Below, in pieces: positions 29,116 to 31,761 of a DNA stretch of 43,441 nt. How positions within the stretch are numbered: the first letter of the stretch is position 1; each line of letters opens with the position of its first letter. Under the pieces are notes generated by a model. It searched no databases. It was not told the origin of the DNA and worked only from the letters and a program-made list of their open reading frames with translations. The stretch comes from Flavobacteriales bacterium. Its GTDB lineage: Bacteria > Bacteroidota > Bacteroidia > Flavobacteriales > UBA1820. A program made the translations under genes and the position numbers. The stretch is from NCBI GenBank assembly GCA_028709885.1, contig JAQUTH010000002.1, forward strand, positions 1 to 43,441, in the 5' to 3' direction.

Positions 29116-30183
29116 TTATGTAGCATTGTTTATTACCCATTCAAAATATTTAGCTTCTATTTTTTCTTTCTCCTTATTCGTAATATTCTTGCTACAAAAA
29201 TCTGATATTCGTGTTGTTTTTCCAGCCATATTAGTTTTAGTTGCTTCAAAATCACACATACCTTTAGGTTTGGGAATTACATTAAATCTGTAGTGATACT
29301 TTTTACCAACTCCCATCAATGAAGATGAGTCGTTGATATCTGTTGTCCAGTATCCCGGAAAATTGCATTTTTCCAAGGCTCGTCTCATTTCCAACACTGA
29401 AGAGTACCTATCTGTAGGATTAACAGATACAGCTTTATTGATAATTGAGGCTACTTTGTTTGGGACATAATTCCTGTGATTTCGTGAAGGTATCTTTCCT
29501 TTTTTCTTTAGTTCCTGAAAATTAGATCTGTCACTTAAAAATTCATTCCGCAACTCACTAATACCATTTGCAAGACGGTATGCGGTACATCCCGCTTGAT
29601 AAATGTCAGTAGAAATACTTATAATGGCTGAATCTGAAATTGTTTCTGGTGCACCATGAATAAGGTATATGTTTTTAGGTGTAATAGGCTTGTTATCTGG
29701 AGTTATACCTGAAATTCCATAATCAGCTAAAATACCATTGCTGTTTTTATCTAAAAGAATATTACTTGGCTTAATGTCATTGTGAATAACATTCCCATTG
29801 TGCAGATATTCTAATCCTAACAATACGTCTTTCAATATTTTCAGGAGATCTGGTATGATTAGAAAATTATGTGTATTAAGTAACTTTTCAACCGTGCCAT
29901 TTTCTTGATAATCTTGAGCAATCAATGTGTATGTTTTACCATCATCTTGTATTATATCAGCATAGTGAATCTGCAATAAATTTTGATGATTAAACTTATT
30001 CCCAATCCTTGCTTCTTCAAGGAGTTTTGTCACCTCTTCTAGTTTGGTCGGAATGATTTTTAGTGCAACTTCTTTATCAATAGTTTTATCATTTGCTAAC
30101 CAAACCTCTCCAAATCCACCACCTCCTAACCTGCGAATGAGGGTGAATTTATATACGTTATCTCCTATATTAAACATGCGCAT
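29116..30183 (-). CDS. Hanks-type (eukaryotic-like) Ser/Thr protein kinase, soluble, with an unassigned ~85-aa C-terminal domain
   Basis: 355 aa. All the kinase motifs are present:
- Gly-rich loop LGGGGFGEV
- VALK lysine (K42)
- catalytic loop HNDIKPSN (nt 29761-29784, checked codon by codon)
- DYG, standing in for DFG
- GAPE
- a late DR (NPTDRYSS)

There is no TM segment and no PASTA, FHA or TPR region. Confidence 0.85.
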   Translation of the reverse strand: MRMFNIGDNVYKFTLIRRLGGGGFGEVWLANDKTIDKEVALKIIPTKLEEVTKLLEEARIGNKFNHQNLLQIHYADIIQDDGKTYTLIAQDYQENGTVEKLLNTHNFLIIPDLLKILKDVLLGLEYLHNGNVIHNDIKPSNILLDKNSNGILADYGISGITPDNKPITPKNIYLIHGAPETISDSAIISISTDIYQAGCTAYRLANGISELRNEFLSDRSNFQELKKKGKIPSRNHRNYVPNKVASIINKAVSVNPTDRYSSVLEMRRALEKCNFPGYWTTDINDSSSLMGVGKKYHYRFNVIPKPKGMCDFEATKTNMAGKTTRISDFCSKNITNKEKEKIEAKYFEWVINNAT

Positions 30184-30631
30184 TAGTCATTTTTATCGCA
30201 GCTACAATGGCATCTGCTATTTTTGTATCCCAATGCTTTGATGTTTTGCCCACATTACTTTCTGCTAGTTGCTCCACGTTTTTACTACTTGTTCTTAAAT
30301 TTGTGTATACAAAAGAGCTAATAGGGATATTTTTATCACTAGCTACCATTGTAGTTATGCAGTCAAAAAACATGACTTGTTTGAGTTTGCTATAATTGGA
30401 TGGGGTATTCTCATTTTGTTTTATAGCAATACCATCAAATCCTTTATTATTATCTATAATCCTCTCTATTTCTTTTCTAAACCATGTGTAAATATCATTT
30501 CCCTCACAGCTCTTAGGCTTGGTAATCCTATTCTCATTGCTCAAATTTAAACACTTGTAGCCACTGTCGTCTTTCTCGATGATGGCATATCTAATACCGT
30601 CACTATAATTTCGTATTCCTAATATTTTCAT
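30170..30631 (-). CDS. Hypothetical protein with RuvC/RNase H-like fold signature (DUF3010-like?), catalytic set apparently degenerate
   Basis: 153 aa. MKILGIRNYSDGIRYAIIEK resembles the RuvC/YqgF beta1-beta2 (ILGIDPG), but with R in place of the first catalytic Asp. GIAIKQNE sits at the beta4 position. The C-terminal DTKIADAIVAAI resembles the RuvC DAxAxA helix. The gene overlaps the kinase start by 14 nt. Confidence 0.4.
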   Translation of the reverse strand: MKILGIRNYSDGIRYAIIEKDDSGYKCLNLSNENRITKPKSCEGNDIYTWFRKEIERIIDNNKGFDGIAIKQNENTPSNYSKLKQVMFFDCITTMVASDKNIPISSFVYTNLRTSSKNVEQLAESNVGKTSKHWDTKIADAIVAAIKMTNAHV

Positions 30632-30655
30632 TTAAAGTTGTTTTTTATTTCAATT

Positions 30656-31555
30656 CTAAGATTTAATATCTATCATCTTTTCAAATAGAGGTGTTTTAGT
30701 AATATAGACCTCAATTTCGGGATATTTGGTCTTTTCAATTTCGACAAGTCCGAAGTGAAGCATAAAACGTTCAAAGGTGCGGAGTGAGTAACAATTAGCT
30801 CCTTGCTCTTCCATGGTGCGGTACTCTCGTGTAAAACCTTTTAAAAGATCAGGAAATGCCCTGAAGTATTTCTCTGCATAGAATTTATAGGAACGTTTCT
30901 GATCGCCATACTTCGATAGTAGAATAAAACTGAATCCACTGCCCATTCCGCCAACGTGTTCATTGCCGTAGTCATCAAAATAGGCGAAATTATATCTACA
31001 CGTAAAATTCCATAGTAGCTCTTGGAATAGTTTATTACTATCCTTGGCAATTTTTTCACCGTTTTTCGTAAGGGTCATCACACCTTTTTGCTCTTTAATG
31101 ACTTTCATAATTTTGAGCATTACGTGGGTAAGGATGACGGCTTGAGAATCCAACTCTTTAGTCAATTTTGAGAAACCAGACTCAATTAATTCATCACGAA
31201 TCCCTAACTCATAGACCTCTTTCACTATTTTAGGTGGAATTGCTTTTGTCGCAGTGAGTTTAATTTTACCTTCGCACAGTAGAATATCGGTAATATGTTT
31301 CATCTGACGAAAAAGAGGAATAGTGTTTAAATCCTCCTCGGATAATCTTTTCATCTTAACGGGTGAGCCAATATCCCACAATCCGTGAATAATAGCAAAC
31401 ATATCATTCGAGGAATAACCCTCAAATTGTGATAATGCAGCACTATTACGTTGCTGCATAAACTCTCCAATCCACTGATTTAGCATCTCAATAGATGTAG
31501 CGTGACCATATTTCTTCTCACACTCGGCGATATATTTTTGTAATTTTTCGTTCAT
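30656..31555 (-). CDS. Hypothetical protein (299 aa), no family recognised
   Basis: This ORF-track entry looks helical throughout and has no TM segment or signal peptide. It starts 5 nt after the HTH gene stop. The stretch GKIKLTATKAIPPKIVKEVYE vaguely recalls YecA/SEC-C-associated helical proteins. That is not enough for a call. Confidence 0.5.
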   Translation of the reverse strand: MNEKLQKYIAECEKKYGHATSIEMLNQWIGEFMQQRNSAALSQFEGYSSNDMFAIIHGLWDIGSPVKMKRLSEEDLNTIPLFRQMKHITDILLCEGKIKLTATKAIPPKIVKEVYELGIRDELIESGFSKLTKELDSQAVILTHVMLKIMKVIKEQKGVMTLTKNGEKIAKDSNKLFQELLWNFTCRYNFAYFDDYGNEHVGGMGSGFSFILLSKYGDQKRSYKFYAEKYFRAFPDLLKGFTREYRTMEEQGANCYSLRTFERFMLHFGLVEIEKTKYPEIEVYITKTPLFEKMIDIKS

Positions 31556-31560
31556 AACTG

Positions 31561-31761
31561 CTATTTAGTTTTATGCAACAACTTCCGTATATCTACATCC
31601 AAAAGAGAGGCTATTCGGTCGAGGTTTTCTATTGAGGGTTGTGTGTGGTTATTACACCAACGAGAAACTGTTGCCATATCCTTGCCTAAATTCTCTGCTA
31701 ACCATTTTCCTGTGCGTTTTTGCTCTATCAAAACCTCTTTTATCCTATTCAACTTTGCCAT
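31561..31761 (-). CDS. XRE-family helix-turn-helix transcriptional regulator (66 aa)
   Basis: The stretch GKWLAENLGKDMATVSRWCNNHTQPSIENLDRIASLL is a classic Cro/C1-type HTH_3 pattern. Confidence 0.85.
   Translation of the reverse strand: MAKLNRIKEVLIEQKRTGKWLAENLGKDMATVSRWCNNHTQPSIENLDRIASLLDVDIRKLLHKTK

Follow-up and report, generated by a model that had tools for sequence, protein, structure and literature searches.

A conserved gene pair encoding a degenerate RuvC-like protein and a Hanks-type Ser/Thr kinase, frequently embedded in methylation-based immune operons, as an unnamed candidate anti-phage module

The DNA considered here, referred to as the window, is a stretch of 43,441 nucleotides (nt) of a Flavobacteriales bacterium (GenBank assembly GCA_028709885.1, contig JAQUTH010000002.1, positions 1 to 43,441 of the forward strand). 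It carries a cassette of four minus-strand genes encoding, in the direction of reading, a 66-amino-acid (aa) helix-turn-helix (HTH) protein of the XRE family (HTH66), a 299-aa protein of the Y4jL_N family, a 153-aa RuvC-like protein and a 355-aa Ser/Thr kinase, and these had been read in an initial annotation as one system. We found that the conserved unit comprises two genes and not four. The RuvC-like protein is the obligate upstream partner of the kinase, and the two genes are co-inherited and co-diverging across Bacteroidota and Alphaproteobacteria, with horizontal spread of the pair across phyla, whereas the 299-aa protein and the XRE HTH are lineage-specific neighbours that lie outside the conserved pair. 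The pair is habitually placed in methylation-based immune operons, with modification/specificity genes on one side and motor/nuclease genes on the other, and we consider it as an unnamed candidate anti-phage module.

Dereplication at 80% identity left 32 lineages, and in 30 of them the kinase gene directly follows the RuvC-like gene. Using a distant subset of the RuvC-like family, we also scanned metagenomes and recovered 44 loci, of which 42 span most of the gene, and a kinase gene immediately follows the RuvC-like gene in 40 of these 42. Among the exceptions, the contig of locus L066 stops 101 nt past the RuvC-like gene. At locus L042 (3184-4621), the RuvC-like gene comes after hsdM and is followed by about 1 kb that contains neither a kinase gene nor any other long open reading frame (ORF); here the pair seems to have decayed. 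In 33 related loci, the two genes overlap or are separated by 6 nt at most, and the identity of the RuvC-like partners to the window protein (27-55%) tracks that of the kinases (36-60%). The pair was found in both Bacteroidota and Alphaproteobacteria, on plasmids and on a conjugative element. The adjacency of the genes, their overlapping or abutting ends and their co-divergence bear out the earlier suggestion that the kinase and the 153-aa protein are partners.

In the neighbourhoods of the 153-aa homologues, the pair lies between hsdS and hsdR of type I restriction-modification (R-M) operons, without any HTH or Y4jL gene. This order, hsdS-pair-hsdR, was seen in five GTDB genomes (Bacteroidales metagenome-assembled genomes, Algoriphagus and Flavobacterium limicola DSM 15094). 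Plasmids pHR1a of Novosphingobium resinovorum and pMpar-1 of Methylocystis parvus have the arrangement hsdS'-hsdM-…-hsdS-(hypothetical-Ser/Thr kinase)-hsdR-SprT, in which the RuvC-like gene is labelled 'hypothetical protein' in RefSeq, and the hsdS/RuvC-like, RuvC-like/kinase and kinase/hsdR junctions of pMpar-1 are 4-nt overlaps in each case. Overlaps of 4 nt between the pair and the flanking R-M or DISARM genes are common.

Over the 32 lineages, the pair has the type I context hsdM-hsdS-(pair)-hsdR in 13, and type I modification and specificity genes upstream on a contig that ends before the downstream gene in four; single lineages have the pair in a class 1 DISARM operon, in an operon with modification and specificity genes plus three unknown proteins, and just downstream of a complete type I R-M system (the window and its relative L016). 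No Hsd or Drm genes were detected by this tally in the other 12 lineages, of which three have Hsd fragments by blastp (L033, L062 and L073) and most of the remainder have short flanks. When the lineages with at least about 2.7 kb on both sides are considered, 16 of 20 have the pair in or adjoining methylation-based systems. This embedding in type I R-M and DISARM operons is the most informative feature of the pair and had been overlooked by the initial annotation.

The class 1 DISARM lineage (L034-L041) is organised as drmD (SNF2), drmMI (N6-methylase), the pair, drmA (helicase), drmB and drmC (PLD), where drmB corresponds to MZB, formerly DUF1998. In locus L039 (9514-12094), a second pair of genes, encoding a PRTase-CE protein and a reverse transcriptase (RT), is inserted in the DISARM operon directly after the RuvC-like/kinase pair and is missing from the sibling loci L036 and L037; this slot accumulates embedded cassettes. 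Locus L055 (4473-15990; also L046 and L047) has an N6-methylase gene, an HsdS-like gene, the pair and then genes for three proteins of 417, 388 and 1379 aa without a Pfam family; this type of operon may be an undescribed R-M-like system.

The 153-aa protein had been described as a degenerate RuvC-like protein, and structural comparison agrees with this description. The AlphaFold2 model of the protein, made with 23 homologues, has a predicted local distance difference test score (pLDDT) of 91.4 and, using Foldseek against the PDB, the top 12 matches are all bacterial RuvC resolvases (E 3e-8 to 2e-6, TM-score 0.70-0.79), including 7xhj, 6s16 and 1hjr (E 3e-8 to 4e-7). With hhalign, the profile of 88 diverse family members and the RuvC sequence of E. 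coli could be aligned over 140 columns (E 1.6e-4); only the well-known motif positions of the latter are relied on here. In this alignment, the catalytic residues D7, E66 and D138 of RuvC correspond in the family to R7, K71 and K/Q137 (K137 in the window protein), and D141 is retained as D140. Position 7 is R in 76 of the 88 members and K in nine, and is never acidic; K71 is found in 87, E74 in 85, and position 140 is D or E in 82. The former active site is a conserved charged pocket formed by R7, R14, K71, E74 and D140. Judging from the alignment, the remodelling of the active site to Arg/Lys, with three of the four catalytic carboxylates replaced, is a family-wide character. Among the catalytic residues of RNase H-like nucleases, the Asp of strand β1 is the most conserved and, because it is replaced in this family, canonical two-metal cleavage by the RuvC-like protein is predicted to be unlikely.

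The RuvC-like protein and the RuvC resolvases are thus alike in fold (TM-score 0.74-0.79), in size and in the C-terminal ADAxxAA helix motif with its Asp, but the RuvC-like protein lacks three catalytic carboxylates, has no Pfam RuvC match and is paired with a kinase and not with ruvAB. We did not retain it as a RuvC Holliday-junction resolvase, as it has the fold without the catalytic tetrad or the sequence membership. Searches of Pfam, NCBIfam, PADLOC and PHROGs returned no significant family for either the 153-aa or the 299-aa protein, and no model of these four collections covers the RuvC-like partner; weak matches to ThsB (E 0.0068) and Major_capside (E 0.023) in the searches with the two proteins were rejected as noise. 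Using HMMER, the RuvC-like family profile found no RuvC among the PDB sequences up to E 10, and chance matches to nitric-oxide synthase (E >0.4) were dismissed. The RuvC-like protein is not phage-borne, as no counterpart was found when phage genomes were searched with it by tblastn. A profile search of 1.84 billion representatives collected 172 family members (representatives at 50% identity) with E <=1e-3, nearly all of about 150 aa.

The second member of the pair was described from the start as a kinase with every catalytic motif in place, and these motifs can indeed be read from its translation: a G-loop (LGGGGFGEVW), K42, HNDIKPSN with D136, DYG (154-156) and APE (178-180). In 34 cognate kinases, whose identity to the window kinase is 36-60% over the full length, the G-loop, K42, HxDIKPSN, DYG and APE are kept. 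The full length includes a conserved C-terminal extension of about 80 aa, without a family match, that follows the kinase domain (residues 10-273 approximately). The only Pfam match is Pkinase (E 1.4e-37), with no transmembrane segment and no PASTA or FHA domain, as had been stated, and the gene is situated in a defence island. By its sequence, the protein is a soluble Hanks-type Ser/Thr kinase with an intact catalytic site, and we propose it as the effector of the pair. With PADLOC the best match is mad6 (E 6.6e-45, kinase domain only), and 22 PD-T4-6 models match as well (best E 2.1e-38), only over residues 9-273; PHROG 2361 matches with E 3.6e-50. The NCBIfam equivalogs give scores that are all under their cut-offs: 120 against 460 for MAD6 (NF047741), 48.5 against 990 for PglW (NF033442), and a score far under the cut-off for PknB.

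To our knowledge, kinase-based phage defence is known from few systems (Stk2, PD-T4-6, PglW and MAD6) and what triggers them is poorly understood. Stk2 of Staphylococcus and PD-T4-6 of E. coli resemble the pair in that a soluble eukaryotic-like Ser/Thr kinase is the defence effector, but they are single-gene systems, as reported for the Ser/Thr kinase system of E. coli (PMC9519451), whereas the kinase considered here has a RuvC-like partner in 30 of 32 lineages. The PD-T4-6 hidden Markov models also match housekeeping PASTA kinases, for instance that of S. thermophilus (PMC11514479); because the match of the window kinase involves the generic kinase domain only, and PASTA kinases match too, it is not diagnostic. 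PD-T4-6 identity was therefore rejected, the similarity being generic to the kinase domain and the single-gene organisation being absent.

PglW, MAD6 and DndF are alike in having a Ser/Thr kinase tied to a self/non-self system based on DNA modification, and the S/T/Y kinase domains of BREX-2 PglW and of DndF are predicted backup effectors (PMC12839542, PMC10853773). By contrast with the 355-aa kinase, theirs are domains of very large proteins (with NERD nuclease, pseudokinase and winged-HTH arrays) for which no RuvC-like partner is described. MAD6 of MADS was rejected on its score, on the absence of other MADS genes and on the HTH, which matches mad1 only at E 0.04; PglW of BREX type 2 was rejected as the kinase has 355 aa with a single kinase domain and the window contains neither pglZ nor pglX.

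In genomic position there is a parallel with the PrrC/RloC guardians, which are accessories nested in type I R-M operons with a proposed second-line suicidal or growth-arresting response upon bypass or inhibition of the R-M; PrrC is embedded in type Ic R-M and is triggered when the R-M is inhibited (PMC12707154). Unlike the pair, which consists of a Hanks kinase and a RuvC-fold protein, PrrC is one protein, an ABC-ATPase-like anticodon nuclease; PrrC-like embedding is seen in 13 related lineages, and the window copy lies 3.7 kb downstream of hsdR. CapK/CapS is likewise a pair of genes for a kinase and a partner near immune operons, often R-M (88 of 443 capKS loci adjoin an R-M system), that responds to DNA-derived signals, being activated by single-stranded DNA from DNA repair and able to control an adjacent immune operon (PMC13373217). 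However, CapK is a GHKL/anti-sigma-type kinase and CapS a STAS-winged-HTH repressor, located upstream at the operon promoter, whereas the pair has a Hanks-type kinase, a RuvC-fold partner and a mid-operon position. CapK/CapS membership was rejected because the folds are wrong, Pfam giving no HATPase or STAS match. We found no paper that describes the pair in a literature coverage that is incomplete, so that an earlier description elsewhere is possible; in agreement with the initial annotation, the gene combination has no name in Pfam, NCBIfam, PADLOC or the searchable literature.

The explanation that we favour, with a confidence slightly better than even, makes the pair a kinase-based accessory of methylation-based immunity that would act as a backup or guardian module, with the RuvC-like protein as the non-catalytic sensor or regulator and the kinase as the effector. 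The RuvC-like protein would no longer cut DNA and would bind branched or structured DNA or another phosphate-bearing ligand, or else restrain the kinase. A phage attack that escapes or inhibits the host R-M would lead to activation of the kinase, which would then phosphorylate host proteins, phage proteins or both, so that the infection would be stopped, as an abortive-infection or backup layer comparable to those of Stk2, PD-T4-6, PrrC and the kinase domains of PglW and DndF. A more general idea, to which we give tentative credence and rather less than to the first, is that there may be an as yet undescribed cross-phylum class of guardian modules, inserted into type I R-M and DISARM operons, in which a RuvC pseudo-nuclease with an Arg/Lys pocket would read DNA structure or restriction failure and phosphorylation would abort the infection.

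Several points weigh against a guardian role. The sample of contexts is biased, since the loci were fetched through conserved peptide patterns. In the four lineages that make up the rest of the 20 with reasonable flanks (L058, L064, L065 and L068), the reference set used detects neither type I nor DISARM genes near the pair: in L058 the surroundings are a defence island that also encodes a DUF4011 helicase-nuclease and a GIY-YIG protein, in L064 an insertion sequence directly follows the kinase gene, L065 has the pair at the edge of an island, and L068 has a C5-methylase and a DEAD/ResIII helicase nearby. The window pair itself is not embedded in R-M, as it is found 3.7 kb downstream with five genes between. 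Four conserved acidic residues are left in the RuvC-like protein (E54, E74, D/E90 and D140) and may form an alternative catalytic site. Finally, the tight integration of the pair in the operon between hsdS and hsdR fits a regulatory role within R-M equally well.

Such a role, which we regard as unlikely although it is the strongest of the alternatives, would make the pair an internal regulator of R-M or DISARM: the RuvC-like protein would sense DNA damage, junctions or forks and the kinase would phosphorylate HsdR, HsdM, DrmA or a repressor, so that restriction would be tuned, for instance by licensing of the nuclease or by a restriction alleviation that spares the cell from cutting its own DNA following repair or recombination. 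The constant position between modification/specificity and motor/nuclease genes, with 4-nt overlaps on both sides, and an association that is almost exclusively with methylation-dependent systems speak for this role. So do the kinases that are integral to methylation-based systems, such as PglW in BREX-2 (PMC12839542), with MAD6 as the best PADLOC match here, and the precedent of CapK/CapS (PMC13373217). On the other hand, the pair persists even where it is no part of an R-M operon (in the window, L016, L058 and L065), it moves among type I, DISARM and the modification-specificity-unknown operons in the way of autonomous cassettes such as prrC or the PRTase-RT pair of L039, and most type I R-M systems work without it.

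We consider it improbable, and more so than a regulatory role, that the pair is a toxin-antitoxin or addiction module in which the kinase would be the toxin and the RuvC-like protein the antitoxin, and which would stabilise a mobile element or R-M island. The arrangement, with the gene of a larger enzyme overlapped by a small one upstream of it, would suit such a module, as would carriage on plasmids and a conjugative element, and the Pgl kinase has been discussed as a toxin-like component, to judge from the title of Hoskisson 2015, which PMC12707154 cites. Yet the RuvC-like protein and the kinase are conserved to about the same degree, the conserved charged pocket of the former points to binding of a ligand or nucleic acid rather than to a simple neutralising peptide, it has no DNA-binding autoregulatory domain, and the window kinase is a Pkinase and not HipA_C. 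The kinase toxins known to us are of the HipA type and not of the Hanks type. The initial analogy with HipBA fails on this difference of kinase fold, and a HipBA-type toxin-antitoxin was rejected, with the HTH gene lying two genes away and not being conserved with the kinase. A toxin-antitoxin reading is in any case compatible with the favoured explanation, many abortive-infection systems being similar to toxin-antitoxin systems.

The weakest alternative, which we hold to be very improbable, is the single four-gene system first proposed, with the XRE protein as autorepressor, the 299-aa and 153-aa proteins as sensors or antitoxins and the kinase as effector: although the genes are co-directional with tight gaps and an overlap, have their sole recognisable promoter box upstream and are probably co-transcribed locally, although a 3' remnant of the 299-aa gene upstream of the L016 pair indicates an adjacency that predates the split of the two lineages, and although in L020 the R-M operon with the pair begins with a gene homologous to HTH66, the four genes were found together in none of the 31 other pair lineages and in none of seven distinct Y4jL contexts. 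This absence of co-occurrence in other genomes was the outcome that the initial annotation had itself set against its proposal. A full Y4jL_N gene is beside the pair in none of the other 31 lineages, and L016, whose pair is 91-96% identical to that of the window, has neither the HTH nor the complete 299-aa gene (a 51-aa remnant is all that is left of the latter) and has three other small genes instead.

The homologues of the 299-aa protein number at least 156 matches, in Bacteroidota, Marinimicrobia and others. Most of those listed (E 1e-59 to 1e-177), including the 90%-identical P0001, are annotated as PF27146 (Y4jL_N), and the assignment of the window protein to this family rests on the precomputed annotation of its homologues rather than on direct scoring. 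The AlphaFold2 model of the protein (pLDDT 94.5) is a predicted multi-winged-helix structure; Foldseek against the PDB and BFVD gave nothing below E 0.01, the partial winged-helix matches in the PDB being PadR, MarR, the BpuJI recognition domain and Stn1. The homologue of 90% identity (L077) lies between HigBA and a convergent Fic gene, and those of 85%, 71% and 59% identity are monocistronic; neither a RuvC-like gene nor a kinase gene was found near the homologues at 59-90% identity. Nothing supports a role of the 299-aa protein as sensor or antitoxin of the kinase. Distant homologues adjoin RhuM, AbiEii plus a DEAD helicase, or ScoMcrA-SBD and McrBC. The family recurs tightly beside RhuM, AbiEii, DEAD helicase, McrBC and HigBA (L007-L015 and L076-L083). 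Y4jL_N is an uncharacterised defence-island protein in its own right; a literature search for Y4jL returned nothing.

The 66-aa protein belongs to the XRE family (Pfam HTH_3, E 4.3e-11). Its homologues head a Fic gene in L077 (60% identity) and the whole hsdM-hsdS-pair-hsdR operon in L020/L021 (51% identity), the latter being the only other place where one recurs at a locus with the pair, and HTH66 is for this reason better seen as a promiscuous head-of-operon regulator than as a dedicated partner. The proposal that the XRE protein is the dedicated autorepressor of the kinase finds no support.

The layout of the cassette in the window is as initially reported, according to the ORF list and the sequence: four packed genes of the same strand with gaps of 5 nt (HTH66 gene to 299-aa gene) and 24 nt (299-aa gene to 153-aa gene) and a final overlap (Table 1), which suggests translational coupling of the RuvC-like and kinase genes. 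The candidate promoter box upstream of the HTH gene, TAACTTTG, is present and well positioned; however, its motif (TAnnTTTG) has 86 matches across the window for 50 expected by chance, an enrichment in keeping with a Bacteroidota genome, and a single match is therefore weak evidence. No TAnnTTTG box was found within 130 nt upstream of the RuvC-like gene, and an internal promoter for the pair was rejected on this basis. The four genes are probably co-transcribed in the window, as a local operon formed by juxtaposition and not as a conserved system, and expression of the pair probably depends on read-through from the promoter in front of XRE HTH and Y4jL_N, two genes upstream that are unrelated to it. 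A hairpin does follow the kinase gene, as had been noted, but it is AT-rich, has no T-run and was not called by the terminator scan, and it was rejected as a terminator. The statement that the cassette is the most AT-rich part of the window is approximately right (GC content 0.347 against 0.402 for the window, the lowest-GC intervals of 2.6 kb beginning at 28.0-29.0 kb), except that a DUF3825 gene is lower, at 0.316. Similarly, of the type I R-M/Fic/HEPN array placed next to the cassette, type I R-M and Fic were confirmed by Pfam and no HEPN domain was found.

Table 1. Positions of the cassette and of neighbouring features in the window
Feature	Position	Strand	Remarks
XRE HTH gene (HTH66)	31561-31761	-	66 aa; ORF list
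Y4jL_N-family gene	30656-31555	-	299 aa; ORF list
RuvC-like gene	30170-30631	-	153 aa; ORF list
Kinase gene	29116-30183	-	355 aa; ORF list
Overlap ATGCGCATGTTTAA	30170-30183	-	14 nt; RuvC-like stop / kinase start
TAACTTTG, candidate Bacteroidota -7 promoter box	31790-31797	-	29 nt before the HTH ATG
Hairpin GTTCTTT-AGG-AAAGAAC	~29063-29079		3' of the kinase gene; AT-rich, no T-run
C-terminal remnant of type IV secretion system coupling protein	28760-29044	+	94 aa; 83% identity to residues 576-669 of the L016 protein
Complete type I R-M locus	33850-41749	-	Pfam; 3.7 kb upstream of the pair, same strand
hsdM	39710-41749	-	Pfam
Bro-N/Fic gene	38823-39707	-	Pfam; embedded between hsdS and hsdM
hsdS	37508-38821	-	Pfam
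hsdR	33850-37497	-	Pfam
Cold-shock-domain + DUF3825 gene	41774-43024	-	upstream of hsdM
207-aa protein gene	33099-33722	-	no family match
Outer membrane protein and HIRAN-domain protein genes	32003-33032	-	between cassette and R-M
Non-coding gap	28090-28733		~650 bp
Terminator-like hairpin	28243-28274	-	14-bp stem + T-run

The closest relative of the window pair is that of L016, with 96% identity for the kinase and 91% for the RuvC-like protein. The window and L016 have the 207-aa gene in common, as well as the type I R-M (nt identity 71-75%), whereas the HIRAN, outer membrane protein (OMP), HTH and Y4jL genes of the window are replaced in L016 by a gene of 68 aa, a DUF2188 gene and an ORF of 51 aa. 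This last ORF is a remnant of the 3' end of Y4jL, so that the adjacency of Y4jL and the pair is ancestral to both lineages but dispensable. Downstream of the kinase, L016 has intact genes for a 670-aa type IV secretion system coupling protein, a relaxase, MobC and Tra proteins. The window has only the remnant of the coupling protein gene, convergent with the kinase gene, and this places the cassette at the eroded edge of a Bacteroidota conjugative element. The window pair became detached from an R-M operon and is now on a decayed conjugative element.

Beyond this edge, the genes of the window up to position 28089 are housekeeping genes, and the AT-rich non-coding gap (GC 0.337) lies between the remnant of the integrative and conjugative element and a Na:Ala symporter gene. 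The gap contains a strong terminator-like hairpin without a match in Rfam; this region may be an island junction or an unannotated small RNA. Scans of the window with Rfam and for tRNA genes gave no matches.

On the other side of the cassette, the segment encoding a β-barrel OMP and a stand-alone HIRAN-domain protein is, together with HTH and Y4jL, a lineage-specific insertion that is absent from the otherwise syntenic L016. The 207-aa protein has a 76% identical copy directly after hsdR in L016, and the slot after hsdR holds a YgjP/SprT-type metalloprotease in L001, pHR1a and pMpar-1. Within the R-M locus, Bro-N/Fic is a second embedded accessory, and the Fic protein of L077, headed by the 60%-identical HTH66 homologue, is 78% identical to it. 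The gene upstream of hsdM, for a protein with a cold-shock domain and DUF3825, is the most AT-rich gene of the window.

A small two-gene kinase module with a dedicated and structurally recognisable partner would offer an experimentally tractable case, and among the carriers of the pair are strains in culture (Flavobacterium limicola DSM 15094, Methylocystis parvus OBBP and Novosphingobium resinovorum HR1a). Automated annotation would label these kinases as 'PD-T4-6' and overlook the partner. The conversion of the acidic site of RuvC to conserved Arg/Lys bears on the evolution of pseudo-enzymes, as a nuclease fold recruited as a probable sensor, and the constant location of the pair within operons of type I R-M and DISARM is relevant to the way in which bacteria layer a backup response onto restriction. 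If the guardian reading is true, the pair would represent a new sensor-effector logic for bacterial immunity.

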